Below are positions 14,914 through 44,844 of a stretch of DNA of 64,000 nucleotides, piece by piece. The notes beneath the pieces are model-generated. The model had not been told where the DNA came from and did not search any database. It saw only the letters and a program-made list of their open reading frames with translations. The DNA lies in the IMG/VR virus record IMGVR_UViG_3300044854_000085, positions 1-64,000 of that record, one strand, 5' to 3'. Numbering within the stretch: position 1 is the stretch's first letter; each line of letters starts with the position of its first letter. The DNA is from a virus (taxonomy: Duplodnaviria > Caudoviricetes). Both the position numbers and the translations under genes were made by a program.

Positions 14914-14922
14914 GCGGTTAAT

Positions 14923-17670: not shown

Positions 17671-17775
17671 GCCGCGTCCTTTTGTTCCCTTTTCGGCCAC
17701 GGTGCTGGCCGAGACCCATCGTGGTGAAGCAATAGCTTCCTGACGGTCGAATTTCATCCAAGAGAGATAAGCAAG

Positions 17776-19602: not shown

Positions 19603-19692
19603 CACGGCAGATCCGAGAAATCGAAAAGCGGCTCGCCAGCGGCAGGCGACCAGCGACAACAAGCAAGCCGCAATGCCAACATTCACGGAGGA

Positions 19693-21242: not shown

Positions 21243-22263
21243 CCTCCTCTGGGACGGAAAACGGATCCGTCGATCGACACGTCAAGCCTCCAAACGCGCC
21301 GCTGAACAATTAGAAGCCGCACACCGTACGCGCCTGGCATTGGGCGAGGCCGATATCGCGCCGCGAAAGAAGGTCACGCTCAAAGATTTCTCCGCGCAGT
21401 TCAACGACTATGTGAAGGTGCGATCGGCCGAACGGCCGCATACGGTCGCCTTCTACAAGCGCACGACGTCGAAACTTCTCGAGTACGAGCCCCTCGCTGC
21501 GGTCTGGCTCCATGCGATCGATGAAACATTGATTGACGGATACGTCAGTCAACGCCGGGAACAAGTCGCGCCGGCGACGGTCAATCGCGAGCTCGCCACG
21601 CTGAAACGCATGCTGCGGCTGGCGATGACGCATTGGAAGCTGCTCGACAAGGTCCCGAAGGTCACGCTGCTCGACGGAGAACGGATTCGCGAATTCATTC
21701 TCTCGCCGGAGCTCGAAACCAAGTACCTGGCGGCGGCGCCGCAACCGTTAAAGGATGCCGCGGTCGTCATGCTCGACGCAGGCCTGCGCGCCGGCGAGCT
21801 GCTCCGTCTGACGATTCACGACATCGAATCCGAACCGAAGCAAGGCGCGAAACTCGGCTCGATTTGGATCCGGAAGGGGAAATCGAAGAATGCCAAGCGC
21901 GTCCTCTCGATGACGGAACGCGTTAATGAAACGTTGGCCAATCGGCCGCTGACCACGAGCGTTTACATCTTCCCGGGTAAGAAGCCGGAAACGCCGATAT
22001 CGATTTCGTGGCTGGAGCGGCAGCACCGCAAGGTGCGCGAGACGCTGAAGCTGCCCGAAGAGTTTGTCATCCACTCGCTGCGACACACGTTCGGAACCCG
22101 CCTGGGTGAGACCGGCGCGGACGCGTTCACAGTCATGAAGGTGATGGGTCACTCCTCGGTGACGATCTCACAGCGTTACGTGCATCCGACTCCGGACACG
22201 ATGGAACGGGCGTTCGAGCGCCTGGCTGCGTTGCAGACCGCTAAAGAAAAGAAGGAAAGTTAA
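21205..22263 (+). CDS. Second tyrosine recombinase/integrase
   Basis: N-terminal KRGKYYWYDLLWDGKRIRRST arm domain, AGLRAGEL (R), IRKGKSK (K), HSLRHTF and MGHSSVTISQRY. Confidence 0.93.
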   Translation: MSCYKRGKYYWYDLLWDGKRIRRSTRQASKRAAEQLEAAHRTRLALGEADIAPRKKVTLKDFSAQFNDYVKVRSAERPHTVAFYKRTTSKLLEYEPLAAVWLHAIDETLIDGYVSQRREQVAPATVNRELATLKRMLRLAMTHWKLLDKVPKVTLLDGERIREFILSPELETKYLAAAPQPLKDAAVVMLDAGLRAGELLRLTIHDIESEPKQGAKLGSIWIRKGKSKNAKRVLSMTERVNETLANRPLTTSVYIFPGKKPETPISISWLERQHRKVRETLKLPEEFVIHSLRHTFGTRLGETGADAFTVMKVMGHSSVTISQRYVHPTPDTMERAFERLAALQTAKEKKES

Positions 22264-23435: not shown

Positions 23436-24684
23436 ATTCCTTTTCCAGCCCGCGCGCTTCAAAGCGGTGTGGGGTGGGCGTGGGGGCGGTAAAAGTCACA
23501 CAATCGCGGCCGCGCTAATCATTGAGGCGTATCGCCGGCCGCTGCGCGTGCTCTGCGCACGCGAGATCCAGCAATCGATCCGGGACTCGGTAAAACGTCT
23601 GCTCGACGACAAGATCGCGGCGGCCGGCATCGGCGACTTCTATCGGTCGACAGATACGGAGATCCGCGGGGCCAACGATTCGCTGTTCATTTTCGCGGGC
23701 CTGCGGACCAATATTGCGTCGGTCAAATCGCTGGAAGGCATCGACATCGCATGGATTGAAGAAGCCAACACGGTGTCTCAGGGAAGTCTCGATGTCCTGA
23801 TCCCGACCATTCGAAAGCCGGGATCCGAGCTCTGGTTTAGCTGGAACCCGCGGCACTCGACCGATCCTGTCGATGCGATGTTTCGCGGCGCCGCTCCGCC
23901 GCCGAACACGATCGTCCATGAGATCCAGTGGCGCCACAACCCGTGGTTTCCAAAGGTGCTCCAGGATGAGATGGAATGGTGCAAGGCGCGCGATCGCGAC
24001 AAATGGTTGCACGTTTGGGAAGGCGGATATCTCAGAAACTCCGAAGCGCGCGTGTTCAAGAACTGGCGCATCGGATCCCCGGACGAATTCCCAACGAAGC
24101 GCGAAACGCGGTTTTACTACGGCGCCGATTGGGGCTTCTCGACAGACCCGTCGACGCTGGTGCGCTGCTACATCGAAGGCCGCGTGCTGAAGGTCGACTA
24201 CGAAGCTTACGGCCACGGCGTCGACATCGATTTCCTGCCGTTCATGTTCGGCGGCTTCGGCGATCCCGAGCTCAAGAAGCTCAATGAGGAAGCGCACAAG
24301 AAACTCTCGAGCGGTTTGCCGCAGTACGGCGGCAAGCTGCCGAACTGGAAAGGCGTGCCGATGGCGCGCAAATGGCCGATCCGCGCGGATTCGGCCCGGC
24401 CCGAAACCATCAAGTACTTGCAGACGCATGGCTTCCCGCGGATGGTGGCGGCCAGCAAAGGCGCCGGCTCGGTTGAGGACGGCGTGGAGTTTCTCAAAAG
24501 CTACGACATCGTGGTGCATCCGCGCTGCATACACACGATTGACGAATTGACGACGTATTCCTACAAGACGGATCCGTTGACGGGCCAGGTCCTGCCGATC
24601 CTCGAAGACGACAAAAACCATATCATCGACCCGCTGCGATACGCGCTGGAAGACGCGCGCCGCCCGGGCCTGCAAATCTTTTAA
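23374..24684 (+). CDS. terL: Terminase large subunit, PBSX/XtmB family
   Basis: Walker A WGGRGGGKS, CAREIQQSI, Walker B IAWIEEA, SWNP, nuclease GADWGFSTDP and NHIIDPLRY. Exact start uncertain. Confidence 0.95.
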   Translation: MSEAPSKTDLLQRLLIPERLEFLFQPARFKAVWGGRGGGKSHTIAAALIIEAYRRPLRVLCAREIQQSIRDSVKRLLDDKIAAAGIGDFYRSTDTEIRGANDSLFIFAGLRTNIASVKSLEGIDIAWIEEANTVSQGSLDVLIPTIRKPGSELWFSWNPRHSTDPVDAMFRGAAPPPNTIVHEIQWRHNPWFPKVLQDEMEWCKARDRDKWLHVWEGGYLRNSEARVFKNWRIGSPDEFPTKRETRFYYGADWGFSTDPSTLVRCYIEGRVLKVDYEAYGHGVDIDFLPFMFGGFGDPELKKLNEEAHKKLSSGLPQYGGKLPNWKGVPMARKWPIRADSARPETIKYLQTHGFPRMVAASKGAGSVEDGVEFLKSYDIVVHPRCIHTIDELTTYSYKTDPLTGQVLPILEDDKNHIIDPLRYALEDARRPGLQIF

Positions 24685-26939
24685 TGAAATTCTCACACCG
24701 TTTCGCACGTTGGGTATTACGGCGCGCCGCCGAACTCCCTCTTCCCATGCAAGCCCGCGAAGGCTTCCTGCTCAACGTCGGCGCCGGCAATGATTTAGAA
24801 CTACGCCCGGTCAAAACGAAGTCCGACCAGCTCGACTCCTATGCGGGTTGGGTATATGCATGCGCGTCGACGATCGCCTCCGATCTCCGCGCCAATCCAT
24901 GGGCCGTCTGGAAGAAGACCGGCAAGCGCCGCGAAGACTGGGAGGAAGCCGACAAGGCCTCGCTGCCATCGCTATTCAGCCGCCCCAACAGCACGCAGAC
25001 CTGGGGACAATTCATTGAACTCCGGAACCTGCACAAGGATCTGTGCGGCGAAGCGTACTGGCATCTGATCTGTTCCAAACCCGGCGGCGCCGTCGTCGGC
25101 ATCCAGCTCATTCAACCCGACTATGTCGAACAGCCAGTCCTTGACGGCCCACGCATCGTCGGGTGGAGAGTGAGCATCGGGGGACGCAGCGCCACCACGA
25201 TCGATGCGCAGGACATCATTCCGGACTTCTATCCGCATCCGGCCGATCCGCTGCGCGGCGCTTCCCCGGTTGAAGCGTTCGCACTGTCGCATCATCTGGA
25301 TCTCTATATGCGCGCGTACGGCGTGAAGATGGTTCGCGACGGGTCCTCGATTGCTCAATATCTCAAAACCGAACAAGAACTGACTCCCGAACAAGCCGAA
25401 GCGTCAGCCGAACAGGTGACTGCGCGCGGCCGCCGGATCGGCCGGCTTCACGTTTTCGGCAAAGGCGTATCGGTTGAAACGCCGGGCCTGCCGTTCAAGG
25501 AGTTGGAGTTGCTGGACACACTGAAGCCGTCGCAGCAACAAATCATGGGCATCTACAAGGTGCCCGCCTCGAAGCTCGGCATTGTCGAAGACAGCAACCG
25601 CGCCAACATGGAAGCGGCCTCCTACAACTACAACCTGAATGCGCTGTGGCCGCGGCTGATGACGTTCGATGAAATCATGAATTTGATTCTGATGCCGCGC
25701 GTATTCGGTAAAGCGGCCTCCGGTTTGGCGTATGAATCCGAGAGTCCGGTCAAAGAGGATGAGCAGCAAATCTTCGATCGCGCGCTGAAAAAGTTTAATG
25801 CGGGACTGATCAAGGTCAATCAGGCGTTACACGAAGTCGGCGCCGACGATCAGGGCGAAGAAGGCAACGTCTACTTCATTCCGTCGACCGTGACGATCGT
25901 CAAGAACCTGGAACCGACGCCGCCGAAGCCGGAACCCACAGTCTCGCCAATCGCCCCCAACAATGAAAGCGGCGGGCAATCGCCCGCCGCTCCCACCCCG
26001 CAAACAAACCAACCGAAACAGGCCAATCCTATCGAAGAGGCCACAAAGAAGATAGCCGCGGCCGCTCAAGTGACCGCCGATGCGGGCATGCGCCTGGCGC
26101 TCGACGCCAACAAGCGCGAGATGGCGGTCATGCGGAGGCAATTGGCCGAAGAACGCTACCTGCGCATGCAGGAGCAGCTCGAAGCGCGCGCCAAATCGAA
26201 GTTGCGGGCGCAGTTCTCGCGCGACCTGAAGGAAACCAAGCGGCTGCTCGATGAACATTTCGCCGGCACGCGCATCATGCGTCCTCCGGCAGGATTCCCG
26301 GAACAACTCATGGTTCTGGATATGGGAACGCGGAACTGGATCGACGACGCCGCCAAAGCGAACCACGATGAATGGCTCGATCTGCTGCGCGAGATCACAT
26401 TGGACGGCGCGCGCGCGGGCACGGAACTGCTCAAACAGGAAGTCGCCGGCGGAATCTCCTTCAACGTGTTCCAACAGAAGGCCGCCGAATTCGCTGCACG
26501 GCACGCGGCCGAAAAAATCAGCGGCATTCAGATCACGACGGAAAGAGCCGTCCGCCAATTGATCACGCGCGCGGTGGAAGACGGCTCGAGCCTGGCGGAC
26601 ACATCGAAGGGTTTGGCCGAGCTCTACGACGAATTCAAAGGCAGCCGCGCGGAAACGATCGCGCGCACCGAAACATCAACCGCCGTCAGTTGGGGCAAGT
26701 ATCAAGCGGCGCGAACCAGCGCCGCGAACCTGGGCTTAACGCTAGAGCGCCAATGGGTTGCCACGCGAGACGATCGAACACGCGATACGCACGCTGAGGC
26801 CGACGGTCAGACGATCGCTTTGAACGACACGTATGTCGTCGGCGGCGCGAACCTGAGACAACCGTCCGATCCCAACGGGCCGGCTGAAGAAACAATCAAC
26901 TGCCGGTGTACGGAAACGTACATCGACGTTTCGGACTAG
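24684..26939 (+). CDS. Portal protein (HK97-type) fused to a Mu gpF-like minor head domain
   Basis: N-terminal ~410 aa portal (WVYACASTIA, GEAYW, IMGIYKVPASKLG), P/Q-rich linker, then C-terminal AETIARTE...QWVATRDDRTRDTH...INCRC (MuF signature). Confidence 0.9.
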   Translation: MKFSHRFARWVLRRAAELPLPMQAREGFLLNVGAGNDLELRPVKTKSDQLDSYAGWVYACASTIASDLRANPWAVWKKTGKRREDWEEADKASLPSLFSRPNSTQTWGQFIELRNLHKDLCGEAYWHLICSKPGGAVVGIQLIQPDYVEQPVLDGPRIVGWRVSIGGRSATTIDAQDIIPDFYPHPADPLRGASPVEAFALSHHLDLYMRAYGVKMVRDGSSIAQYLKTEQELTPEQAEASAEQVTARGRRIGRLHVFGKGVSVETPGLPFKELELLDTLKPSQQQIMGIYKVPASKLGIVEDSNRANMEAASYNYNLNALWPRLMTFDEIMNLILMPRVFGKAASGLAYESESPVKEDEQQIFDRALKKFNAGLIKVNQALHEVGADDQGEEGNVYFIPSTVTIVKNLEPTPPKPEPTVSPIAPNNESGGQSPAAPTPQTNQPKQANPIEEATKKIAAAAQVTADAGMRLALDANKREMAVMRRQLAEERYLRMQEQLEARAKSKLRAQFSRDLKETKRLLDEHFAGTRIMRPPAGFPEQLMVLDMGTRNWIDDAAKANHDEWLDLLREITLDGARAGTELLKQEVAGGISFNVFQQKAAEFAARHAAEKISGIQITTERAVRQLITRAVEDGSSLADTSKGLAELYDEFKGSRAETIARTETSTAVSWGKYQAARTSAANLGLTLERQWVATRDDRTRDTHAEADGQTIALNDTYVVGGANLRQPSDPNGPAEETINCRCTETYIDVSD

Positions 26940-27711: not shown

Positions 27712-29028
27712 ATGGAAACCCAGAATACGGATTTCGCCGCCGTCGTGCGCGCCGAAATCAAACAGGTCGAAGAGACCTTGAAATCCCACGTGTCCGGCCA
27801 GGTTGCCGAACAGTTCCGCACGGTTCAGGCCGACATGGCCGCGATCCGCGAAGACCTGAAGACACGCGCGTTGGCCGGCGAATCGCCGAAAGCCGAAAGC
27901 GTGAAGGAACTCGAAACGCGGTTGGCCGCGGCCGAGACTTCCGTTCGCGAAATGGTTGAAGCTGCGAAAACAGCGACGACCAAAGTCACGTCGATGAATG
28001 AAGAGGAGCGCGATGCGAAACTCTTCACGGGCGCTTTCATCGCCAATCAGGAGGAGCTGCGAAGCCGCCTGTATCAGTTGCGCCAGTTCGGAAGCGACAG
28101 CACGCGCGCTATCGACGCGTCGCTGTTTGCGACCGGCGGCAAGCTGAGCCCCGAGACCGCGGACCGATTCATCGATTGGGTCATTCAGAAGCAAGCGGCT
28201 CTTTCGAGAATCACCACGCGCCGGATGCTGGCTCCCCAGGGCCACATCGATGAGCTGACGGTGTCCCGCCGCAGCATGCGCAAAGCCGTCGACGGCGAAG
28301 CGCCAACGGTTGCCGATGCCATCGGCACCAAGCGCCGGACGTTGACGACAGTCGAAGTCATCTGGGCGGAAGACATCACACTGACGTTCCTCGAAGACAA
28401 CATCGAGCGACGCGGTGCGGAAGCCCACATCGCCCGGCTGATCGCGACGCAGTTCGGCAACGACGCCAACGATCTGGGCTGGAACGGCGACGACAGCGAA
28501 GATTCCAGCGGCGGCGATCCGTTCCGCTCCATCAACCAGGGATGGATCCGGTTGGCGCAAGACGACAACCAGGTCAACGACGTCGACGCGTCGGACAACT
28601 CCGGCGACGATGCCACCTGCTCGGGCGTCCTCGGCGAAGCGATGCGCAGCCTTCCCGTCGAATACCTCGGCCTGGGCGACCTCGGCTACTTCATGCCGTT
28701 GCCGTTCTGCCAACGCTATGCGGAGGAATTGTCTCAGCGCAAGACGCCGCTCGGCGACCAGGTAATGGTCAACGGTTTCCCCGTGCTCCGATATTTCGGA
28801 TTGCCCGTGATTCCGGAAGTCCACCTGTACGAATTCACCCAGGACAAGGGCATGCTGACCCCGCTCAGCAACCTCGTGTTCGGCGTGCAGCGCGTCGTGA
28901 CGGTTGATGCGGAATGGCGGCCTCGCAAGCGCGCGGTGGAATACACCGTGACGGCGAGAATCGACTACGAGTACTCGACTGGCAAAGCCATCGCGCTCGT
29001 GTCCGGTATCCCGGCCTTCCTGCGGTAG
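27712..29028 (+). CDS. Major capsid protein (HK97 fold, N-terminal coiled-coil delta domain)
   Basis: Follows the protease; coiled-coil N-terminus; GGKLSPETADRFI and FGNDANDLGWNGD; 438 aa. Confidence 0.88.
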   Translation: METQNTDFAAVVRAEIKQVEETLKSHVSGQVAEQFRTVQADMAAIREDLKTRALAGESPKAESVKELETRLAAAETSVREMVEAAKTATTKVTSMNEEERDAKLFTGAFIANQEELRSRLYQLRQFGSDSTRAIDASLFATGGKLSPETADRFIDWVIQKQAALSRITTRRMLAPQGHIDELTVSRRSMRKAVDGEAPTVADAIGTKRRTLTTVEVIWAEDITLTFLEDNIERRGAEAHIARLIATQFGNDANDLGWNGDDSEDSSGGDPFRSINQGWIRLAQDDNQVNDVDASDNSGDDATCSGVLGEAMRSLPVEYLGLGDLGYFMPLPFCQRYAEELSQRKTPLGDQVMVNGFPVLRYFGLPVIPEVHLYEFTQDKGMLTPLSNLVFGVQRVVTVDAEWRPRKRAVEYTVTARIDYEYSTGKAIALVSGIPAFLR

Positions 29029-29072: not shown

Positions 29073-29106
29073 CCGGGCCCGGGTTTACCGGGCCCGGCCT
29101 TTTTTC
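29073..29106 (+). terminator. Rho-independent terminator after capsid gene
   Basis: CCGGGCCCGG-N5-CCGGGCCCGG followed by TTTTTT. Confidence 0.75.
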
Positions 29107-29121
29107 ACCAGCTTCTCAGAA

Positions 29122-29142
29122 GTAGGAGAAGCGTTCTCCTAC
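29122..29142. repeat. Late-region palindrome copy 1, GTAGGAGAA-GCG-TTCTCCTAC
   Basis: Perfect 9-bp inverted repeat; same motif at 38093 and 44824. Confidence 0.85.
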
Positions 29143-29213: not shown

Positions 29214-29495
29214 ATGAACGATGCAATTCCTGTAGTGACTGCGGCGGTCGACAAAGCCGAAGTCGCTTTACCGAACTTCTCACGGGCCGCGCGCGTCTGG
29301 TCGACAGCCGATTGGGCACGGTTCAAAACCTCCGATGGCAAAAAGTACGTAACGATCGAGAACAAGAACGGCGGCATTGTGTCGCGATCGATCCGCTTAC
29401 TGGAACCAGACACGCGATCGGTTAAACAACGCAAGCGCGATCGGCGCGCAGCGCGCGAGCTTGGCGCTATCGCCGCGAAGGCGCAGACGGCATGA
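29214..29495 (+). CDS. Hypothetical head-associated protein
   Basis: 93-aa ORF overlapping the adaptor start (ATGA). Confidence 0.6.
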   Translation: MNDAIPVVTAAVDKAEVALPNFSRAARVWSTADWARFKTSDGKKYVTIENKNGGIVSRSIRLLEPDTRSVKQRKRDRRAARELGAIAAKAQTA

Positions 29496-30073
29496 AACGC
29501 CTGATCACCATCGGCGATGTCTGCACGTATTTGAAGATCGCCGCCACACCCGACGTGGAGCCGGCAATCGATACGGCGCACGCGCTGGTTGCCGCGCATC
29601 TGCTGGTGCAGTCCCTCGATCGAGCGGTACGCACCGAGAAACACAAGCCGACGTGGGACACCCGGCTGATCGTGACGCGCAGCGGGCCCATCGCCACATT
29701 CACATCCGCGAAACTGAACGGCGTGGCCATCAGCGAGGACAACTATCTGTCCCGCTTCTGGACGATCGAAAACATTGGCGATGAGCCGTGGGTCCGCGGC
29801 GATGTGCTCGAACTGGAATTCACCACCGGCTTCGGGAAGCTGGAATCCTCCGCCGGCGACGACGTCTATTTGCCGTTCAACGTGAAGCGCGCGCTGATCA
29901 TCACCGCGGCCGTGCTGCACAAGCGCAACTCAACGAACGTGGATCCGACCGTCACGTCCGAACGTATCGGCGATTACTCCTACACCCGCAGCGATCGAAA
30001 CTCAGATGAACACGGCGACATCCCCCAGGCCGCCGCGGACCTTTTACTTGAGTACAGAAAGCCGAGGATATGA
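29492..30073 (+). CDS. Head-tail adaptor (gp6/gp15-like)
   Basis: Position after capsid; LITIGDVCTYL, PFNVKRALII and TSERIGDYSYT. Confidence 0.82.
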   Translation: MKRLITIGDVCTYLKIAATPDVEPAIDTAHALVAAHLLVQSLDRAVRTEKHKPTWDTRLIVTRSGPIATFTSAKLNGVAISEDNYLSRFWTIENIGDEPWVRGDVLELEFTTGFGKLESSAGDDVYLPFNVKRALIITAAVLHKRNSTNVDPTVTSERIGDYSYTRSDRNSDEHGDIPQAAADLLLEYRKPRI

Positions 30074-30232
30074 GCGACAGAGAAATCGCCGCCCTCGGTA
30101 CTGCATTCGGCGCAGGACTGATGCTGCTGTGTTTCGGTTTGTGGTCTCACAGTGAGCAGATGCTCGCTTGGGGAGGCTTTGCATCCGCTATCGCCGGCTT
30201 TCTCTTATTTCTCGAACTGACGTAGTGCAGCA

Positions 30233-30838
30233 ATGCCCTGGCGCGTGCCCGACGAATGGAAGGGCGAAACGGCCGTCATCTTCGGCGGCGGTCCTTCACT
30301 GAACCAAGCCGACGTGGACTATGCGATCTCGCGCGGCTGGCGTCGGATTGCATGCAACAACGCCTATCTGCTCGACCCGCACGCCGACGTGCTGTGTTGG
30401 GCCGATCAACGCTGGTATTTGTGGAACCGCAAGGATCTCCACAAGCACGTTGGGAAATACAAGGTCTGTTGGCGTCTCGTGCCGGCGACGACCGGGCTCA
30501 CGATCAAGACGCTGATGCATCACCGCGGCGTGGTCTCGAACGATCCTCTGGCGATCGTCGCCAACAACACCGGCCAGGGCGCGATCAACCTCGCCTACCT
30601 GTTCGGCGCGAAGCGCATTCTGTTGCTCGGCTTCGATATGCGCACGCACGGCGCTCAACACAACTGGCACAAGCTGCACCAGCGCGGAACGGCGCAGAGC
30701 CGCTATAAGGAAGTGTTCGGGCCCGCGATCGCGAAAGCCGGAGAAGCGATCCAGAAGAAGGGCGTGACGATCCTCAACTGCACGAAGGATTCAGCCATGA
30801 AGTGTTTTCCGATCGTCGATATCCGGGAGATCCAATGA
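30233..30838 (+). CDS. DUF115/Maf (GT42 CstII-like fold) putative ulosonic-acid glycosyltransferase 1
   Basis: AVIFGGGPSL...IACNNAY...NNTGQGAINLAYLFGAKRILLLGFDM resembles the nucleotide-sugar binding motifs of CstII/Maf (IAGNGPSL, GYKEIYLSGIDF). Confidence 0.72.
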   Translation: MPWRVPDEWKGETAVIFGGGPSLNQADVDYAISRGWRRIACNNAYLLDPHADVLCWADQRWYLWNRKDLHKHVGKYKVCWRLVPATTGLTIKTLMHHRGVVSNDPLAIVANNTGQGAINLAYLFGAKRILLLGFDMRTHGAQHNWHKLHQRGTAQSRYKEVFGPAIAKAGEAIQKKGVTILNCTKDSAMKCFPIVDIREIQ

Positions 30839-31095
30839 CGGTTGAACAGAAACTCGCGCGGCTAACGCCGTCCCATCACCACTTCGAACGGGTCCTCGAT
30901 CCGTGGCACGTCGACGCATTCGTGGGAACGCCGGCCGAAGGACACGGCATCGGTGGCGAACGCCGCGTGGTCTGGTACTCGGTCGATTGGTGCGGCAACC
31001 TGATTCAGTGTTGGGGCGAAGACACGCCGCCGGGAGTCGAAGCCAGCGATAAGGACGGCCAGAAGATCATCGCCGGATGCCCGGCCAACGAGTAA
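30835..31095 (+). CDS. Hypothetical protein
   Basis: ATGA overlap upstream and TAATG overlap with kdsA. Confidence 0.6.
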   Translation: MTVEQKLARLTPSHHHFERVLDPWHVDAFVGTPAEGHGIGGERRVVWYSVDWCGNLIQCWGEDTPPGVEASDKDGQKIIAGCPANE

Positions 31096-31952
31096 TGCTT
31101 TATAACCTGCCCGAATTCGGAATCAATCTCGCGCCGTGGTTCGATACAGTGTTCGAGAACGATCAGCCCCGCAAGCGCGGCCTGTTCCTCATTGCCGGCC
31201 CGTGCGTGATCGAATCTCACGCGCACGCGAAATACATGGCCATGGCGATTAAACAGATGGCCGCGGCCGCGGGCATTCCGTTCGTGTTCAAGGCGTCTTT
31301 CGATAAGGCCAACCGCACATCGCATGCATCCTATCGCGGGCCTGGTCTGGCGCGCGGGTTGGACATTCTCGACGACATCCGGCGGACGATACACGTGCCG
31401 GTCCTCACCGACGTGCACGAAGCGTTCGAAGCGGGTCCTGTCGCCGATGTAGTCGACATCATCCAGATTCCGGCATTCCTTTGCCGGCAAACCGACGTCG
31501 TTCAAGAGGCGGCGCGGACGGGAAAGATCATCAACGTGAAGAAAGGCCAGTTCCTTTCTCCATGGGACGCGAAAGCGATTGTCGATAAGGCCCGCGCCGT
31601 CGGAAACGATCGCGTGATGCTCACCGAGCGCGGATCCACATTCGGCTACAACAACCTGGTGGTCGACTTCCGATCGCTGCCGATCATGAGCCGGTTCGGT
31701 TGTCCTGTGATTTTCGACGCGACACACAGTTTGCAATTGCCCGGCGGTGAAGGATCGCACTCCGGAGGAACTCCCGAGTTTATTCCCCACCTGGTGCGCG
31801 GTGCCGTGGCCGTCGGCGTTGATGGGGTCTTCATGGAAGTTCACGACCAGCCGGAGAAGGCGCTATCGGACGGAGCCAATGCGTTGAAGCTCGATCGACT
31901 GCCTGCGGTTCTTGCGGAAATGAAACGGATTCACCAATGTTTAAACAGGTAG
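31095..31952 (+). CDS. kdsA: KDO-8-phosphate synthase (2-dehydro-3-deoxyphosphooctonate aldolase)
   Basis: LIAGPCVIES, FKASFDKANRTS, IPAFLCRQTD, NVKKGQFL, TERGSTFGYNNLVVD and FDATHSLQLPGG. Confidence 0.97.
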   Translation: MLYNLPEFGINLAPWFDTVFENDQPRKRGLFLIAGPCVIESHAHAKYMAMAIKQMAAAAGIPFVFKASFDKANRTSHASYRGPGLARGLDILDDIRRTIHVPVLTDVHEAFEAGPVADVVDIIQIPAFLCRQTDVVQEAARTGKIINVKKGQFLSPWDAKAIVDKARAVGNDRVMLTERGSTFGYNNLVVDFRSLPIMSRFGCPVIFDATHSLQLPGGEGSHSGGTPEFIPHLVRGAVAVGVDGVFMEVHDQPEKALSDGANALKLDRLPAVLAEMKRIHQCLNR

Positions 31953-32539
31953 CGCTCAAACCGGCCGACGTGATGCACGCATCGATTGCCGCGATTGCGC
32001 GCGCGGCGCGTGTTGTTCCGCACCTGTACGCGTTCGATATCGTGGCGCACGCGATTGCGACCACCGATCGGACGGTGTTTGTCACCGGCATTGGAAAGTC
32101 CGGAGTCGTCGCCCGCAAGATTGCCGCCACGCTGGCGACATGCCGGATACGCGCGGTATTCGCGGATCCCGGCGCGTTATGGCATGGCGAGCTCGGCTCG
32201 ATCGAGAGCGATGACATCGTCATCATGGTCAGTCACAGCGGCGAGACCGACGAGCTCCTGCGGCTGGTCCCGATTCTCGAGAAGAAACGGTGCATGATCG
32301 CGCCTATCGTCGGTTATCCGTTATCCACGCTCGGCAAGATGCTCTGTTCCATCGCGACTGGAATAGTCGACGAGCCATTCGCGCAGATCCCAACCGCGTC
32401 GGCCGCGGCGGCAACTGCCGTCGGCGATGCGCTCGCCGTAACGGTTGCTCAGTTGAAAGGACTCGATGACGTTTCGCTCGCACCAGAACATCCCGGTGGA
32501 ACTATCGGCCAGACAAACGGTCGATTGGGCCCGCGTTGA
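31937..32539 (+). CDS. kdsD: D-arabinose-5-phosphate isomerase, SIS domain only (no CBS pair)
   Basis: VFVTGIGKSGVVARKIAATL, HGELG, VSHSGETDEL, PTASA...GDALAV and HPGGTIG; ends at 200 aa. Confidence 0.9.
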   Translation: MFKQVALKPADVMHASIAAIARAARVVPHLYAFDIVAHAIATTDRTVFVTGIGKSGVVARKIAATLATCRIRAVFADPGALWHGELGSIESDDIVIMVSHSGETDELLRLVPILEKKRCMIAPIVGYPLSTLGKMLCSIATGIVDEPFAQIPTASAAAATAVGDALAVTVAQLKGLDDVSLAPEHPGGTIGQTNGRLGPR

Positions 32540-33176
32540 AGGTTCTGCTGAAACCGTAATCATCGTCGCGTCCGGTCCGAGCCTGCGGGCATTTCCCTTC
32601 TACCGGCTGCGCGGCCGCGGATTCGTCATTGCCGTGAACAACGCGGCGCGGGCGGTTCCTTTCGCCAATGCATGGGTCACCGTCGACACGATGCGCCTGG
32701 GCGACCGCATCCCCGCGCGGTTCGACGGAACGCGCTACATCGCCGCGCCGGAAGAATTCGGATCTCCGGATGCGCGCTGCCCGTGCGATCGCCACATTCC
32801 GGACTTCGACGTGAAGTACCTGCGGCGGATCGATCAACCGACGCTCGCGGAGGATCCGACGGTTCTGCACGGATTGAATTCCGCGTTCGGCGCTTTGAAT
32901 TTCGCCTATCACCTGCGGCCGCGGCGCATCGTGATGTTCGGCGTGGATGCGAATCGGTTCGAGGCGTACTTCTACGGTCACCGCCAGGCGACACGGAAAC
33001 AGAACCGCGTCATCCAGGATATGCCCGATGTATTTGCCTCGGCCGTTCCCCAACTGGAGGCGGCCGGCATTGAAGTCCTCAATGCGAGCGCAGCGAGCTC
33101 GGTCCGTTGTTTTCCACGGATGGATTCTCAGACGGCACTTAACCGTCTGCGGTCATGGACACCCTTCGCACGATAG
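32466..33176 (+). CDS. DUF115/Maf (GT42-like) putative ulosonic-acid glycosyltransferase 2
   Basis: VIIVASGPSL...FVIAVNNA...LNSAFGALNFAYHLRPRRIVMFGVDA...EVLNAS; paralogue of 30233-30838. Confidence 0.72.
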   Translation: MTFRSHQNIPVELSARQTVDWARVEGSAETVIIVASGPSLRAFPFYRLRGRGFVIAVNNAARAVPFANAWVTVDTMRLGDRIPARFDGTRYIAAPEEFGSPDARCPCDRHIPDFDVKYLRRIDQPTLAEDPTVLHGLNSAFGALNFAYHLRPRRIVMFGVDANRFEAYFYGHRQATRKQNRVIQDMPDVFASAVPQLEAAGIEVLNASAASSVRCFPRMDSQTALNRLRSWTPFAR

Positions 33177-33357
33177 TCCGGAGATCGTCTTCCCACAACA
33201 GGCGCGCGCATTTGGCGCACAGCAATAGGTCGCTGTTCGTTTCCGAATCGTACAAGCGAATGGCGGCTAGTTCTGAACAGTCGCCGTTCAAGTGGGTCTG
33301 ATGGAAGTTGTGCGGACAAGCACAGGTCGGCTCGATCGGAGCCATAACTAGAGTCTT

Positions 33358-33888
33358 ATGGAGTTTCAAATGTTTCGTGGCGATTTTCTCGTAGAACTGA
33401 TCAAAACGCACGGCCTAAAACGCGGCGTCGAGTTGGGTTTGTGGAAAGGCCGGACCTACTTCCACATGCTCGACCGCTGTCCGGAACTGGAGCTGGTGGG
33501 CGTGGATCAGTGGATGTACCACCCGGAGCGCAAGAGCATTCCCGGCGGTGAAACCTACGAACGCTGGAACATGCCGGGCCTGGAAAAGACGGTCCGGACC
33601 CAGGCGAAGAAGTACGGCGATCGCGCCGTGCTGCTCAAATCAGCGACCGTCAGCGCCGCCAAGTACTTCCAGGAAGGTTTTTTCGATTTCGTCTTCATTG
33701 ACGCCGATCACTCGGAAGCCGGCGTGCGCTCCGATATCGAGGCATGGAAACCGAAGGTGCGAGCTGGCGGGTTTCTGACGGGTCACGACATCATGTGGCC
33801 GACCGTGGAGAAGGTTGTCCGCGAGCTGGTGCCCGGCTATCAGCAGAACGGGACCCATAGCGACGCTTGTTGGTACATCCAAATATGA
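33358..33888 (+). CDS. Class I SAM-dependent methyltransferase (Methyltransf_24-like, sugar O-methyltransferase type)
   Basis: GVELGLWKG, LVGVDQW, FDFVFIDADHSEAGVRSDIEAW and GGFLTGHD. Confidence 0.88.
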   Translation: MEFQMFRGDFLVELIKTHGLKRGVELGLWKGRTYFHMLDRCPELELVGVDQWMYHPERKSIPGGETYERWNMPGLEKTVRTQAKKYGDRAVLLKSATVSAAKYFQEGFFDFVFIDADHSEAGVRSDIEAWKPKVRAGGFLTGHDIMWPTVEKVVRELVPGYQQNGTHSDACWYIQI

Positions 33889-34777
33889 ACGAAAAAACAT
33901 CCAAACGCGTGGCTTCCGTTGCCGGACGCATTTCCCGCAGACTCGGCACGCTCAAAGCCATCGAGGACGCCGGAGTGTGGGTTGCAGTATTTCCGGCAGG
34001 AGAAGAGGAGTTGCAGTTCGTCAAAGTGGCGAGCTTGGCCGAACTGAGAGCCATGGCCGCGTCGCTGATGACTCAGGCTCCCGATAAAAAATTATGATTC
34101 GCACCGCATTGACGCCCGAGGACGCCGTGCGCGTTCTCAACGAAGCGCTCGAACTCGACCGCGTCGGGCTATCGCAATTGTTTTTGCGCGCCGCCCCATG
34201 CAACGAAGCGTTGGCGGATCATCCGACCATCCAGGTCGGCACATATCCGAACGGCAGCTTTTACGTGCGGCCGTTGGGTTTGATCAACGGTCTGTTCGGC
34301 GTCGACGAGGAAAGCTATGGACCCATCGCCGCGCAGGTCGAAAACGGTTTGATTCTGAAGTTCGTCACACGGAACTGACGGGTTTGCGGACGATGTGCAT
34401 TGCGCCGTCGTCCGCGGCCGGCCGAACGCGTTCATCATGCGATGCGACGCCTTGGCTGGTGGTTGGGGCGGGCTCTGTACGCATCGGCAGAGCCCGCACC
34501 GCCGAAGGCTTTTGATCCTATGGGCAAGCTACTGTTTTTCAGGAACGCATATTCGGCGCTGCGCGAGGAAGCCAATCGCGTCGTCATTCGGCAGGACGAG
34601 TTTTGCGCGAAGCTCCAGACAGCGATCGATTCCAAAAACCGACGCGCCGTCATAGAAGCTTTTCTTGAATTGAAGCAGAGTGTCGGCCGGTCGAGCGAGC
34701 CCGCAAAGACTTCCGTTGCCGGCTGCCGGCACATCGTGCTCCAGGTCTTGCGCCAGTTGAAGGTGCAAGCGTGTTGA
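33885..34777 (+). CDS. Three small hypothetical ORFs (33885-34097, 34094-34378, ~34400-34777)
   Basis: ATGA couplings within the glycan cluster. Confidence 0.55.
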
Positions 34778-35451
34778 CCGTCGCCTGTGTGATGCGTTCC
34801 GGCGGCGTTTACAACGCCACGCACGTACGCACGCTCGAAGCGATGGTCTCGCGCCATCTGCCGTACCTGGACCGGTTCGTGTGTCTGACCGATTCCGACT
34901 TCCTCGATCCGCATGTCGAATGCATCGGCCTGGTGAACCACTGGCCGGGCTGGTGGTCAAAACTCGAACTGTTCAGCAAGCGGGTGGCTCCGGAAGGCAG
35001 CCGCGTGTTGTATTTCGATCTCGACATGGTGATCACCGGAAGCCTAGTGGAGATCGCAGCCCGGCCCGAGCCGTTCATCGTCAAGAGCGACACGTACCGG
35101 AACGGCATCAAGAGCCCGCGGCATCTGAAGGGACGGCCGGGTTATCAATCGAGCATGATGGCGTGGACGGCCGGCGAGCTCGAATACTTGTATACCGACT
35201 TCGCGCGCACCGCGCCCACGCATATGACCAAACACAAGGCGATCGGCGATCAGGAGTTTTTAGAATTCCACGCCCCGCGTGCGGCATATTGGGACGATGT
35301 GGCGCCGGGCCAGGTGGTCAGTTTCCGTAGACATTGCCGCGAAGGCCTGCCCGCCGATGCACGGGTTGTGGACTTCCACGGCAAAATGAAACCGTGGCTC
35401 GCTGACGACGCCTGGATTGCCGAGCATTACCGGATCGGAGAGAGACTGTGA
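34771..35451 (+). CDS. GT-A fold glycosyltransferase (GT8-like)
   Basis: TVACVMRSGGVY, FVCLTD, GWWSKLELF, DxD in LYFDLDMVI, SSMMAW, GDQEFL and DFHGKMKPW. Confidence 0.85.
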   Translation: MLTVACVMRSGGVYNATHVRTLEAMVSRHLPYLDRFVCLTDSDFLDPHVECIGLVNHWPGWWSKLELFSKRVAPEGSRVLYFDLDMVITGSLVEIAARPEPFIVKSDTYRNGIKSPRHLKGRPGYQSSMMAWTAGELEYLYTDFARTAPTHMTKHKAIGDQEFLEFHAPRAAYWDDVAPGQVVSFRRHCREGLPADARVVDFHGKMKPWLADDAWIAEHYRIGERL

Positions 35452-35623
35452 ACAAACCAGAGACATTCGAACTCCAGATTTCAGCCGTCCGCATTGACGA
35501 AAACAACAAATCGTCGGTCGTCTACAAATCGCGAACTGTCGCGAAGCTCGAGACGCAGGAGCAAGTCGATAGAATCCTCAGCCGCATCGAAGATGTCATC
35601 GCGGATATGACAGGCAGGGCCGC

Positions 35624-35953
35624 ATGAATATTGCGCACTTTCTCACCGAGACGCTCACGCAGGAGCGGAAGACACGCACGTCCAACGGCAAGGGCGGCTT
35701 CACCGAGACGTATCACTCGATCGGCACGGTGAACGGCCGGATCAACGACGCCGGCGGAAGCGAAGTCCACGTCGCCAAGCAGCGGAAGGCGGAAGTCAGT
35801 CACATCGTCTACCTGGATCCGGACACGGATGTGAAGATGGGCGATCGCTTCATCGACTCGCGCGGCCGCGTGTTGCGCGTGACGATCCCGCACGCGGAGA
35901 TCCCGTCGGTGCCGATTTATTCGAAATCGTTCCTCATTGAAACGCAACACTGA
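35624..35953 (+). CDS. Head closure protein (SPP1 gp16-like head-tail joining)
   Basis: TLTQERKTRTSNGKGGFTETY...SHIVYLDPDTDVKMGDRF. Confidence 0.85.
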   Translation: MNIAHFLTETLTQERKTRTSNGKGGFTETYHSIGTVNGRINDAGGSEVHVAKQRKAEVSHIVYLDPDTDVKMGDRFIDSRGRVLRVTIPHAEIPSVPIYSKSFLIETQH

Positions 35954-35969
35954 CAAGCGTTCCACGTGG

Positions 35970-36014
35970 CACATGATAGGTATCATGTGGATTATCATGA
36001 GGCACTTATCATGA
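35970..36014. promoter_or_regulatory. Palindrome plus TATCATG repeats upstream of tRNA-Glu
   Basis: CACATGATA-GG-TATCATGTG (35970-35989); TATCATG again at 35993 and 36008. Confidence 0.5.
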
Positions 36015-36016
36015 TC

Positions 36017-36089
36017 GCGCCGGTCGTCTAGCGGTTAGGACACGGCCCTTTCAAGGCCGGGATCAGGGGTTCGAATCCCCTCCGGCGTA
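36017..36089 (+). tRNA. tRNA-Glu(TTC), phage-encoded, no encoded CCA
   Basis: Cloverleaf: GCGCCGG/CCGGCGT acceptor, GTCTAGCGGTTAGGAC D-arm, CGGCC-CTTTCAA-GGCCG anticodon arm, AGGGG-TTCGAAT-CCCCT T-arm. Confidence 0.93.
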
Positions 36090-36184
36090 TTGTCTTGACG
36101 ATCATCAAGAACATCTGAACGTATATACGTCGATATACGCCGATATACGCTTCCGGAAGTCTTCTCCGACTCTTCTCCGACACA

Positions 36185-36616
36185 TTGAGCAACAACCCGC
36201 AGATCCAGTGGAACTCGGCCGCAATCGTCGCGAAAGTGACGGCACGGGTGGAGAAGAACGTCGAAAAGGCCGCGCTCCTGGTCGAACGCACCGCGATCCG
36301 GAAACTCAGCACCGGCCAACCGGTGCGCCGCACACCAGGCGGCCACCTGGTCGGATTGAATCCGTCGGCGCCCGGTCAACCGCCCCACACGTTAAGCGGC
36401 CGATTGAAGCAAAGCATCACGCACATTGTGGAGAACGTCGGCGGCAAGATCATCGCCTGGATCGGATCCAACGTCGAATACGCCCGCCGTCTGGAGCTCG
36501 GCTTTACGGGCCGAGACCGAGCGGGCCGCAACATCCGCCAAGCGCCGCGGCCGTACTTGCGGCCGTCGGTAACCGAAAACAAGTCTGCGATCGAAACCAT
36601 TCTTCGAGGCAAATAA
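36185..36616 (+). CDS. Tail completion protein (HK97 gp10-like)
   Basis: PSAPGQPPHTLSGRLKQSI, IGSNVEYARRLELG and PRPYLRPS. Confidence 0.88.
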   Translation: MSNNPQIQWNSAAIVAKVTARVEKNVEKAALLVERTAIRKLSTGQPVRRTPGGHLVGLNPSAPGQPPHTLSGRLKQSITHIVENVGGKIIAWIGSNVEYARRLELGFTGRDRAGRNIRQAPRPYLRPSVTENKSAIETILRGK

Positions 36617-36617
36617 G

Positions 36618-37643
36618 GTGAAGACCCTCTTCCAGCGACCCGACCGCATCAACGATCCATTGTATGTCGTGACCATGATTTCGAACCCAGCGCGTTACCG
36701 AGTCCGCTGGAAACACTTCGAGGATTTCGCGAAGCGCTGCGAGGAAGCCGGTGCGATTCTCTATCCCGTTGAAGTCGCCTTCGGCGAGCGCGCGTTTGTT
36801 ATCGATCATCCGAACGTGATCCAGCTTCGAACCTCACACGAACTCTGGCACAAAGAGAACGCCATCAATCTCGGCATCCAACGGCTGCCGCAGGATTGGA
36901 AGTACGTGGCCTGCATCGACGCCGATATCACGTTTGCGCGGCCGGATTGGGCGAACGAAACTATCCATCAGCTCCAGCATTACTCGGTCGTGCAGATGTG
37001 GTCGCAGGCGCAGGACCTGGATCCGGAGCACCAAGCTCTTGTCGAGCAGCGCCTGAGTCTGGCCTATTGCTGGATGCACGGACTGCCGCGCCGTGTGAAT
37101 CACACGAAGGGCGATTATTACGGCTACGAAACCACCGTCTCCGGACAGGGATTCTATTGGCATCCCGGTTATGCGTGGGCATACCGCCGCGACGCGATCG
37201 ACGGATTCGGTGGATTGCTCGACGTGTGCATGCTTGGCGGCGCCGATTATCACATGGCGTACGGCCTGATCGGTGAAATCGAACAGACGATCCAGCGCAA
37301 GACGCTCACAAACTACAACGACATCATTCGACGTTGGGCCGACCGCGCCGATCGCACAGTAAAGCGCAGTGTTGGTTACGTTCCCGGGCTGATCCTTCAC
37401 TCATGGCACGGCGCGAAGGCACACCGCCGATATCGCGATCGCTGGAGCATCTTCGAGCAAGTTCAATATGACCCGTATGCCGATCTCAAGCACGACTGGC
37501 AAGGTCTCTGGCAGCTCACCGATCGCAGTCCGGAATTCCGCCACATGCTGAGCGCTTACTTCAGACAGCGAAACGAAGACAGCGTCGACGTGGATCCGCG
37601 CTGGGCGGCGACAATGCTGAATGCGCCGGGAAAGCAACAATGA
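36618..37643 (+). CDS. GT-A fold glycosyltransferase-like protein
   Basis: LWHKENAINLGI, DxD in VACIDADITF, HPGYAWA, LGGADYHMA and ILHSWHG. Confidence 0.7.
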   Translation: MKTLFQRPDRINDPLYVVTMISNPARYRVRWKHFEDFAKRCEEAGAILYPVEVAFGERAFVIDHPNVIQLRTSHELWHKENAINLGIQRLPQDWKYVACIDADITFARPDWANETIHQLQHYSVVQMWSQAQDLDPEHQALVEQRLSLAYCWMHGLPRRVNHTKGDYYGYETTVSGQGFYWHPGYAWAYRRDAIDGFGGLLDVCMLGGADYHMAYGLIGEIEQTIQRKTLTNYNDIIRRWADRADRTVKRSVGYVPGLILHSWHGAKAHRRYRDRWSIFEQVQYDPYADLKHDWQGLWQLTDRSPEFRHMLSAYFRQRNEDSVDVDPRWAATMLNAPGKQQ

Positions 37644-38086
37644 GCGATGGATTTATCGACCTGGACGCCGCCTTCTACAACCGCATGGCGGGAGATCACA
37701 CGCTCACCGGCCTGCTCGCCAGCTACCCGGACGCGGAGGCAACTAGCGGCGAAATGCCGGCAATCTTCACGGATCGTGAAGTGCCCGAAGACGCGACACT
37801 GCCCTACATCGAAAGCTTCGGCCAGTTATCCGACGTCCCCGACGACGACAAGATCACAGTCGGCCGCGAAGTTCACCGCGACATCTTCTGCTTCACCGAG
37901 CGAGGCCAGACCGACACGCTCAATCAGATCGCCGATCGCGTCAAAACGCTCTTTCATCGTCATGCACTGGAAATCACCGGCGCGACGACGATCAGCGCCT
38001 CGGTTAGCGGTCCGATCCCGGCCGAAACCGATGACACGCTGATCGGCGTGGTTCTCACGGTACGACTGCGCTTTGAGATGAACTAA
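37640..38086 (+). CDS. Tail terminator (DUF3168-like)
   Basis: Position before tail tube; IFTDREVPEDATLPYI, DIF and IADRVKTLFH. Confidence 0.8.
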   Translation: MSDGFIDLDAAFYNRMAGDHTLTGLLASYPDAEATSGEMPAIFTDREVPEDATLPYIESFGQLSDVPDDDKITVGREVHRDIFCFTERGQTDTLNQIADRVKTLFHRHALEITGATTISASVSGPIPAETDDTLIGVVLTVRLRFEMN

Positions 38087-38092
38087 ACCCCG

Positions 38093-38113
38093 GTAGGAGA
38101 ACCCTTCTCCTAC
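38093..38113. repeat. Late-region palindrome copy 2, GTAGGAGAA-CCC-TTCTCCTAC
   Basis: Perfect 9-bp inverted repeat. Confidence 0.85.
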
Positions 38114-38136
38114 TCCGACAATTCAACCCTTTTCCG

Positions 38137-38172
38137 AAAGCCCGGCGGGCTCAACTCGCCGGGCTTTTTTAT
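38137..38172 (+). terminator. Rho-independent terminator before tail tube gene
   Basis: AAAGCCCGGCG-N9-CGCCGGGCTTT followed by T-run. Confidence 0.75.
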
Positions 38173-38197: not shown

Positions 38198-38656
38198 ATG
38201 GCTGGCCAAAACGGCGCAATTGTCCTTCTGAAGGTCAACGTTTCCACTTCCTCTGGAGACGATTTCCAATTCATTGGAGGGCAAACCAACCTTTCCATCA
38301 ACGAAACCACGGCAGAAATCGACGTTTCCGACAAGCTCTCCGGACGCTTGGGTGAACGCGTTCCCGGCCGCGCGAAAGCGAACGTGTCGGTGAACCTGCA
38401 CTTCCTGCGGAGCGATCCGACGATCGTGTACCTCAAGGACAAGTACAGAAACCGCGAACAGATCGAAGTCATGGTCTTCGACCGCGCGAACCTGGACGCC
38501 GTCGACTCGGTGGGCGAAATCACCGGCGACAGCGTCGAATCCGCGAGCGGCATCATCGTCAACTTCAGCGAAACCCATCCCGATCAGGACAAGTCCACAG
38601 TCAGCTTGGAAATCTCGCTGAACAACGACTGGGTCCCTGCTTCGTCTGGCGAGTAG
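38198..38656 (+). CDS. Major tail (tube) protein, TP901-1-like
   Basis: AGQNGAIVLLKV, IGGQTNLSINETTAEIDVSDK; follows the terminator protein. Confidence 0.85.
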   Translation: MAGQNGAIVLLKVNVSTSSGDDFQFIGGQTNLSINETTAEIDVSDKLSGRLGERVPGRAKANVSVNLHFLRSDPTIVYLKDKYRNREQIEVMVFDRANLDAVDSVGEITGDSVESASGIIVNFSETHPDQDKSTVSLEISLNNDWVPASSGE

Positions 38657-44827: not shown

Positions 44828-44844
44828 GAGAACCCTTCTCCGAC
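44824..44844. repeat. Late-region palindrome copy 3, GTAGGAGAA-CCC-TTCTCCGAC (contains the TMP stop codon)
   Basis: One mismatch to copies 1 and 2. Confidence 0.8.

Follow-up and report, generated by a model that had tools for sequence, protein, structure and literature searches.

We analyzed IMG/VR virus record IMGVR_UViG_3300044854_000085 (Duplodnaviria; Caudoviricetes), whose first 64 kb (64,000 nucleotides) are here called the window, and found in its late region a set of sugar enzyme genes interleaved with genes for the neck of the particle (positions 30,233 to 37,643). The set comprises two minimal Maf/WaaZ-like transferases (DUF115a and DUF115b), KdsA and a KdsD-like isomerase of the 3-deoxy-D-manno-octulosonate (Kdo) pathway, a methyltransferase, and two further glycosyltransferases (GTs), one of them resembling PmgQ of phage P1. 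We give about an even chance to the reading that this block is a late, cytoplasmic module that O-glycosylates at least one virion protein with a short, methylated, Kdo-containing glycan. An earlier note on this DNA had placed seven enzyme genes and four neck genes here. All were found where it had put them, on the + strand; the neck genes were borne out by PHROGs, and the identities of KdsA, KdsD, the transferases, and the methyltransferase were upheld by profile searches (Pfam, NCBIfam, and PHROG) and by structure searches. The record is 84,756 bp long, has direct terminal repeats (its opening bases are found again close to the end, starting at 84,629), and has a CheckV completeness of 100%. 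The phage, which is uncultivated, is probably temperate, since its genome encodes two tyrosine integrase-like proteins (genes at 55 to 1245 and 21205 to 22263) and a DnaA_N/HTH replication protein.

The gene for KdsA, the Kdo-8-phosphate synthase, is located at 31077 to 31952, and its product scored 404 bits with NF003543 (cut-off, 242) and 394 bits with TIGR01362 (cut-off, 314) and matched Pfam DAHP_synth_1 at 8.5e-67. The translation shows GPCVIES, KASFDKANR, FDATHS, and MEVHDQPEKALSDG as candidate catalytic and metal-site motifs; the start is probably at 31095 rather than at 31077. The next gene (31937 to 32539) encodes a KdsD-like arabinose-5-phosphate isomerase of 200 amino acids (aa), which matched TIGR00393 at 4.8e-33 (profile positions 3 to 151 of 268), the KdsD and GutQ equivalogs at 4e-30, and phrog_5670 at 1e-22. 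Its only domain is a SIS domain of the KpsF/GutQ type, with GmhA and other SIS types matching far more weakly or not at all. The protein stops just past an HPGG motif and has no tandem CBS pair, and it reached 115 bits against a curated cut-off of 204. SIS-only isomerases are known to be active. The complete 84.7-kb genome contained no match to kdsB (PF02348) or to a kdsC-type phosphatase (PF08282), and therefore CMP-Kdo would have to be completed by the host.

DUF115a (30233 to 30838; 201 aa) matched phrog_4603 at 3e-33, and its paralog DUF115b (32466 to 33176; 236 aa) matched phrog_2111 at 2e-23 and phrog_4603 at 5e-19; the two are 24% identical. With Pfam PF01973 (MptE-like, DUF115) they scored 26.2 and 22.2 bits, respectively, both under the gathering score of 34.6. 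The AlphaFold model of DUF115a (predicted local distance difference test score [pLDDT], 96) ranked the folds in the PDB in the order Maf 5mu5 (E, 1e-5; TM score, 0.68 normalized to the query), CstII 1ro8, and MptE kinase. The two enzymes had been called Maf/GT42-like; the fold match supports the first half of that name, and the second half is better replaced, giving Maf/WaaZ-like.

The link to WaaZ, a protein of CAZy family GT73, came from profile comparison. When a DUF115 profile built from 47 family members, DUF115b included, was aligned by hhalign with WaaZ of Escherichia coli K-12, the probability was 93% (E, 3.3e-7; 186 columns). DUF115b gave two collinear weak matches to the WaaZ hidden Markov model, and the WaaZ equivalog TIGR04437 reached 18 bits against a cut-off of 200. 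By these alignments, the DUF115 proteins are homologous, over nearly their full length, to this Kdo-III protein, which is tied to Kdo transfer and needed for Kdo III in the lipopolysaccharide (LPS) core of E. coli K-12/R2. WaaZ acts on lipid A-core, whereas the phage DUF115 genes sit among virion genes.

The best structural match to DUF115a, the Maf flagellin O-glycosyltransferase of Clostridium botulinum (PDB 5mu5), belongs to a group of cytoplasmic enzymes that use CMP-ulosonic acids, CMP-Kdo among them, and target Ser/Thr. In engineered E. coli, the Maf proteins of C. botulinum and Geobacillus kaustophilus O-glycosylate flagellin Ser/Thr with Kdo from CMP-Kdo (PMC11339370 and its reference 18). 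The phage proteins, at about 200 residues, correspond to the central Maf domain alone, and their acceptor would have to be something other than flagellin should the virion reading prove correct. The predicted donor of DUF115a is a CMP-ulosonic acid, namely that of Kdo. Because Maf uses CMP-Kdo, because of the homology to WaaZ, and because kdsA, SIS, and kdsC genes are recurrent neighbors, we think it likely that Kdo is the donor sugar of both DUF115a and DUF115b.

Of the remaining enzymes, the S-adenosylmethionine-dependent methyltransferase (33358 to 33888) belongs to Methyltransf_24 (PF13578, 2e-16). It gave weak PDB matches to O-methyltransferases, including the sugar-modifying types TylF and MycF, and is probably a sugar O-methyltransferase, judging by these matches. 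Its PHROG label, "DNA methyltransferase," was set aside, as Pfam and the PDB indicate O-methyltransferases. The PmgQ-like gene (34771 to 35451; phrog_1962, 9e-37) encodes a retaining GT-A transferase of GT8 fold, whose model (pLDDT, 85) had LgtC, UGGT, glycogenin, and GlyE as top Foldseek hits at about 2e-9. Its DxD motif, D83-L84-D85, is invariant across 29 sequences, and there was no match to Pfam Glyco_transf_8. Homologs are pmgQ of phage P1 (28.8% identity over 95% of the length) and hdmD of P7. Last comes a GT-A-like glycosyltransferase gene (36618 to 37643), with a weak GT2 match (PF00535; E, 0.005) and no match in a sequence search of the PDB. The ESM Atlas puts it among viral "glycosyltransferase" clusters, its nearest Pfam families being GT7C and GT2. 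No transmembrane helix was predicted in any protein of the cassette, and Pfam, PHROG, and NCBIfam recognized no flippase, polymerase, ligase, or polyprenyl-phosphate transferase in it.

The genes of the block are tightly packed, most junctions being 4-base ATGA/GTGA overlaps, 1-base overlaps, or 1-base gaps. The coupling of enzyme to neck genes described in the earlier note thus holds at most junctions; it breaks at three real gaps (33177 to 33357, 33889 to 34093, and 35954 to 36184). Between 28.9 and 39.5 kb, the only strong terminator-like hairpins were those at 29073 to 29097 (10 G-C pairs, then a T run) and 38136 to 38168. The first, together with a palindrome at 29120 to 29142, forms the left boundary of the block (29073 to 29142, + strand) directly past the capsid gene; the second, with a palindrome at 38091 to 38113, forms the right boundary (38091 to 38168, + strand) ahead of the major tail gene. 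Promoter-like sites numbered 2 against 3.1 expected from shuffled sequence, the model being of the E. coli sigma-70 type, which may not fit the host. Because of the coupling, the hairpins at the block ends only, and the chance-level promoter count, the neck and enzyme genes have the look of a single stretch of the late operon that is reached by read-through and is probably less abundant, and late coexpression, as the note had proposed, is likely. A lysogenic-conversion moron that modifies LPS would look different, with a promoter and terminator to itself, membrane-bound proteins of the Gtr or Wzy type, and a site close to the immunity or att region: here the genes are coupled, there is no promoter excess, no notable internal terminator, and no transmembrane helix, and the integrase genes are far off.

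Relatives of the phage were compared. They were found only by protein search, and their capsid proteins are 45 to 60% identical to that of the window phage; neither megablast against phages nor scanning viral and genome contigs for capsid patterns revealed a close relative. A DUF115a homolog was present in the head-tail block of 8/8 capsid relatives examined, directly after the adaptor gene in the seven closest. In the most distant one (L254; 45% capsid identity), the DUF115a homolog, 32% identical, is found some 5.7 kb downstream of the capsid gene. This layout is not confined to the window: P1 (pmgO-pmgP-pmgQ), D3-like phages, and hundreds of uncultivated phages share the core module.

The sugar genes downstream of DUF115 vary from relative to relative and include GT9, GT-D, GT2, E1 dehydrogenase, short-chain dehydrogenase, and methyltransferase genes. 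In L085 and L086, DUF115 is accompanied by a second copy, a large methyltransferase, a GT9-like gene, a pair of Methyltransf_24 genes, a Zn alcohol dehydrogenase, both the alpha and the beta subunit of E1 dehydrogenase, and a short-chain dehydrogenase; in L085 (Logan SRR22868761, an 84.2-kb contig), where this set occupies the same site (12181 to 21269), the large methyltransferase has 614 aa, and the enzyme set suggests a branched or otherwise unusual sugar. In L087 and L088, a PmgQ-like gene adjoins DUF115a, and kdsA and a kdsC-like phosphatase gene lie upstream of terS on the opposite strand. L089 has kdsA between terL and portal, a SIS gene directly after DUF115a, and more GT2-like and putative transferases. 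L090 has two Methyltransf_24 genes near DUF115, the L174 cassette measures merely about 2 kb, L253 combines a GT-D/methyltransferase fusion, Methyltransf_24, DUF115b, and a PmgQ-like gene, and L254 has a large methyltransferase near DUF115. Thus, the kdsA, kdsC, or SIS genes of the relatives stand upstream of terS, in the terL/portal interval, or beside DUF115; in a distant 87.8-kb contig, kdsA, DUF115, and a SIS gene are adjacent.

A mosaic phage, L091, separated the core of the cassette from its additions. Its head module is unrelated (ClpP protease and PF05065 capsid), while its cassette, neck, and tail proteins are 39 to 64% identical to those of the window: 63% for DUF115a, 48% for DUF115b, 53% for Methyltransf_24 (at the same place), 47% for the PmgQ-like protein, and 64% for the tail tube. 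The gene order is that of the window (DUF115a, DUF115b, Methyltransf_24, PmgQ-like, head closure, gp10, terminator, and tail tube), with no kdsA, kdsD, or GT-A gene in L091. Because L091 keeps the four genes in order without these three, the core cassette consists of DUF115a and DUF115b together with the methyltransferase and PmgQ-like genes and travels with neck and tail genes, and kdsA-kdsD and the GT-A gene are add-ons in the window phage. At its site between tail completion and tail terminator, the GT-A-like gene is also absent from L089. It was dropped as a candidate member of the conserved module: the best 80 of its viral homologs had no other cassette gene nearby, apart from a weak methyltransferase match at 4 loci. 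Its family, which is virus-dominated and has no Pfam family of its own, was found in 186 IMG/VR stretches, of which many come from bins labeled as giant-virus metagenome-assembled genomes. A gene 43% identical to it is present in Xanthomonas jumbo phage XaC1.

Beyond the relatives, KdsA was detected in at least 214 IMG/VR stretches. Among the best 80 KdsA loci, 72 belong to one syntenic lineage with a PmgQ-like gene directly downstream (e.g., L048:9977-11642), and no DUF115 gene was found at the loci of this lineage. In the KdsA tree, the kdsA-PmgQ lineage formed a clade of its own (Shimodaira-Hasegawa approximate likelihood ratio test support, 99) beside alphaproteobacterial KdsA, and the window KdsA grouped (support, 90) with Acidobacteriota KdsA and with the KdsA proteins of L087 and L089. 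Since the two phage lineages fall in separate positions of this tree, kdsA was captured by phages on at least two occasions, with a PmgQ-like gene next to it in each case. Judging from this one gene, the host of the window phage is probably an acidobacterium. At the loci of the kdsA-PmgQ lineage (L005 to L084), the pair follows tail-fiber-like genes and a QueD-like gene.

The closest parallels among studied phages are P1 and D3. The P1 cluster pmgO-pmgP-ppp-pmgQ contains the same core families, pmgO being annotated as sialyltransferase-like, as is the DUF115a homolog of D3/PMG1. The orf7 module of D3/PMG1, as seen in PMG1, has its DUF115 gene placed between capsid and adaptor and a methyltransferase gene between head closure and the gp10-like gene. 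Unlike the window, P1 and D3/PMG1 have no kdsA, no kdsD, and no GT-A add-on, and P1 also has no Methyltransf_24. The annotation of the P1 pmg operon gives it a late promoter as well as C1 operators, and CRISPR interference found pmgO, pmgP, and pmgQ to be nonessential (PMC10695390); that these genes are dispensable for plaques is as expected of a decoration. In the literature that we found, no function is described for phage DUF115 or PmgQ genes. Other isolated phages with a DUF115 gene, besides the D3-like Pseudomonas phages, are jumbo phages of Caulobacter, Brevundimonas, and Xanthomonas.

How the enzymes might work together can be outlined, the order of the steps being our conjecture. The SIS-only KdsD and KdsA would raise the flow from ribulose-5-phosphate through arabinose-5-phosphate to Kdo-8-phosphate, which host KdsC and KdsB would convert to CMP-Kdo. 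The two DUF115 enzymes would transfer Kdo; one may start on an acceptor Ser/Thr, and the other may extend the glycan or act on a second acceptor. Hexose-type sugars from host UDP-sugars could be added by the GT8-fold PmgQ-like enzyme and by the GT-A-like one, and the Methyltransf_24 enzyme could O-methylate a sugar. Conceivably such a glycan would mimic host LPS, as had been speculated.

That the acceptor is a protein of the virion is a proposition to which we give even weight for and against. We favor it because of the fixed place of the cassette in the morphogenesis block, the coupling to neck genes, the soluble enzymes without lipid-carrier machinery, and the lytic-only control of the P1 homologs. 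A cassette that has neither transmembrane helices nor lipid-carrier machinery fits direct transfer to an acceptor in the cytoplasm. Furthermore, families present here have protein-glycosylating members: glycogenin, GlyE, and UGGT in GT8, and GT-D, found in relative L253, which to our knowledge is known only from protein glycosylation.

The mycobacteriophages offer a precedent of another type. According to two reports that cite Freeman et al. 2023 (PMC12619734 and PMC13313380), mycobacteriophage glycosyltransferases and a methyltransferase are proposed or shown to coat capsid and tail tube. Shared with the window are transferases and a methyltransferase colocated with structural genes; the hosts are actinobacterial, however, the transferase families are others, and there is neither an ulosonic acid nor a sugar-supply gene. 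In these phages the glycans are located at C-terminal extensions, which the capsid and tail tube proteins of the window do not have. Phage-borne Kdo genes are themselves known as auxiliary metabolic genes, such as kdsA-kdsB of cyanophage S-SCSM2R and kdsA of jumbo phages, outside structural operons, whereas kdsA-kdsD of the window lies between two transferase genes within the neck block. Like the earlier note, we found no Kdo-based virion glycosylation in the published literature.

Several observations weigh against virion-protein glycosylation. No acceptor was identified, and neither capsid nor tail tube has a C-terminal Ser/Thr-rich extension: the capsid protein ends in ...GIPAFLR, aligned with its relatives, and the tail tube protein (gene at 38198 to 38656) in ...VPASSGE. 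Acidic Ser-rich capsid loops (WNGDDSEDSSGG and DASDNSGDD) are partly conserved and are mere acceptor candidates, proving nothing. DUF115a and DUF115b (201 and 236 aa versus 632 for 5mu5) do not have the N- and C-terminal flanking domains of full-length Maf, which are thought to recognize flagellin. We found no report of a glycosylated virion protein of P1 or D3 despite the long study of these phages. As to the donor, kdsA was present within 10 kb at 0/80 of the best, more distant IMG/VR DUF115 loci, so Kdo need not be the donor of the whole family, which comprises at least 591 IMG/VR stretches; a PmgQ-like gene was present at 20 of these best 80 loci. We accordingly rejected the idea that kdsA generally accompanies the DUF115 genes of phages, the link being confined to the nearer relatives. 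The GT8-like fold suggests a UDP-hexose donor, which leaves the tight pairing with kdsA in the other lineage unexplained. Lastly, all of the families present are typical of LPS-core assembly as well, a process that is likewise cytoplasmic and without lipid-carrier flippases.

The latter point leads to the alternative that survives best, although we consider it unlikely as a whole: the block could remodel the LPS core of the host in the lytic phase, DUF115 adding inner-core Kdo, the GT8-like and GT-A enzymes altering the outer core, and KdsA/KdsD feeding the demand. Adsorption of progeny and competing phages to infected cells, debris, and vesicles would thereby be reduced. For core assembly, soluble or peripheral enzymes of the cytoplasm suffice, DUF115 is a homolog of WaaZ, and the glucosyl- and galactosyltransferases of the LPS core belong to GT8, with waaJ and waaO adjoining waaZ in K-12 and LgtC being the top fold match of the PmgQ-like protein. 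GT9 (heptosyltransferase-like) genes are present in the relatives' cassettes, and the isolated module-bearing phages with named hosts all infect Gram-negative bacteria. In line with this alternative, phage kdsA has been read as a gene for LPS or the host cell wall (PMC12801897). On the other hand, the genes are tied to the neck genes by coupling, promoter-like sites are not in excess among them, and late expression would leave scant time to replace the LPS of the outer membrane. The P1 homologs, under their annotated C1 operators, would be off in lysogens, and the place of DUF115a in the morphogenesis block is fixed across divergent and mosaic relatives, unlike that of patchy conversion morons. 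Methyltransferases and GT-D, as found in the cassettes, would also be unusual for an LPS core.

Rather improbable, in our view, is the glycosylation of some other acceptor in the cytoplasm that plays no part in the particle, such as host flagellin or pilin, a nonstructural phage protein, or a small molecule. The nearest characterized fold relatives, the Maf proteins, act on flagellin, DUF115 genes are present in Caulobacter jumbo phages of the flagellotropic type, and one podovirus-like contig has the cassette between replication and lysis genes and not among head genes. However, most cassettes lie inside head-tail blocks, DUF115a has no Maf flanking domains, and the module is not accompanied by any gene for a candidate acceptor. 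By far the least credible is hypermodification of phage DNA with Kdo-containing glycans to evade restriction, which we set aside: modification right before packaging would suit late expression, and phage transferases can attach Kdo and heptose to 5-hydroxymethylcytosine (bioRxiv 10.1101/2023.12.21.572611), but the complete genome has no match to a Tet/JBP dioxygenase (PF12851), a C5 DNA methyltransferase (PF00145), or a thymidylate-synthase-like hydroxymethylase (PF00303) and so offers that route no hydroxylated base as a substrate, and the published Kdo-adding enzyme resembles the GT-B beta-glucosyltransferase of T4, whereas the window enzymes have Maf/WaaZ-like and GT-A folds. For P1, no sugar-modified base is known to have been described.

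If virion proteins are indeed the acceptors, the proposal might extend well beyond the window. We suggest tentatively, at somewhat less than even likelihood, that many phages of Gram-negative hosts, including P1 (through pmgO, pmgP, and pmgQ) and D3, use minimal Maf/WaaZ-like transferases to O-glycosylate proteins of their own virions with Kdo, and that the window lineage adds its own kdsA and kdsD and a variable, O-antigen-like tailoring set. Virion glycosylation is established only for some actinobacteriophages, in which it affects the immune recognition of therapeutic phages; judging from the cassette, such coating of the particle may also occur in many phages that infect Gram-negative bacteria. 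Together, kdsA/kdsD, the homology to WaaZ, and the use of CMP-Kdo by Maf name a concrete donor sugar, and in P1 or D3 the idea is testable by mass shifts. To date, protein-linked Kdo is known only from engineered E. coli, and the phage case, if true, would be the first natural one; if instead the LPS core is the target, a lytic-phase remodeling system would be new as well. Either way, the long-unexplained pmg genes of P1 and hundreds of metagenomic phage genes gain a working hypothesis. New here are a Kdo supply encoded by the phage itself, the link to WaaZ, two independent captures of kdsA, and the variable tailoring sets at one fixed site.

The late region around the cassette is read on the + strand throughout. 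It starts with a portal-MuF fusion (24684 to 26939), followed by a protease/scaffold gene and the major capsid gene (27712 to 29028). After the capsid come two small open reading frames (ORFs), the head-tail adaptor (29492 to 30073; phrog_442; E, 1.4e-13), the cassette, head closure (35624 to 35953; phrog_1059, 1e-4), a tRNA-Glu gene, the HK97 gp10-like tail completion gene (36185 to 36616; phrog_5, 5e-12), and the GT-A-like gene; these are followed by the tail terminator (37640 to 38086; phrog_176, 3e-4), the major tail protein, a chaperone, and the tape measure protein. The L091 homologs of head closure and tail terminator are 49 and 51% identical, respectively, and the former bears PF05521 (Phage_HCP). 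The tRNA-Glu (anticodon UUC; 36017 to 36089, found by ARAGORN) sits within the neck block, in the 231-base gap (the last of the three real gaps) that separates head closure from tail completion.

Besides the seven enzymes, the block holds five further small or unknown ORFs, which completes the gene content given in the earlier note. A 51-aa ORF (30070 to 30225), of unknown function, is ATGA-coupled to the adaptor gene. Also without a known function are an ORF of 86 aa counted from the ATG at 30835 (30835 to 31095; 30802 to 31095 with a GTG start), which had no family match in Pfam or PHROGs and no homolog in the related loci; one of 94 aa (34094 to 34378), whose sole match was phrog_21281 (E, 7e-4); one of up to 125 aa (34400 to 34777) with no family match in Pfam or PHROGs; and one of 59 aa (35448 to 35627), coupled at both sides.

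The palindromes at the block ends belong to a 23-base element, GTAGGAGAA-N3-TTCTCCTAC, present in three copies, the third being at 44822 to 44844. All three sites are late-gene boundaries (after the capsid, tail terminator, and tape measure genes), and the first two adjoin the terminator-like hairpins. The element may be a late-regulator site or an attenuator.

A few features lie apart from the cassette. In L087 (2391 to 5060), a sigma-70-family (r2/r4) gene was observed a few genes upstream of the minus-strand kdsA-kdsC pair, just before the terminase genes. L253 has a prohead protease/scaffold gene with a Pfam match to Acb1, an anti-CBASS phosphodiesterase (8550 to 9914), and, downstream of its cassette, an IS605 OrfB/Cas12f-like gene. 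The window itself contains two islands of lower G+C content (0.51 to 0.55 versus about 0.59). The first (12000 to 16000) carries an ATP-dependent DNA ligase-like gene (12120 to 12902, minus strand) and a PIN-domain gene (14212 to 14748), and the second (56000 to 64000) carries a gene for an Eco57I-like methylase/endonuclease of 996 aa (56837 to 59827, minus strand). In the early region past the window, a DUF5131 (phage Gp37/Gp68) gene was detected with 231 bits (L003:5930-7030; genome positions 69930 to 71030, minus strand).

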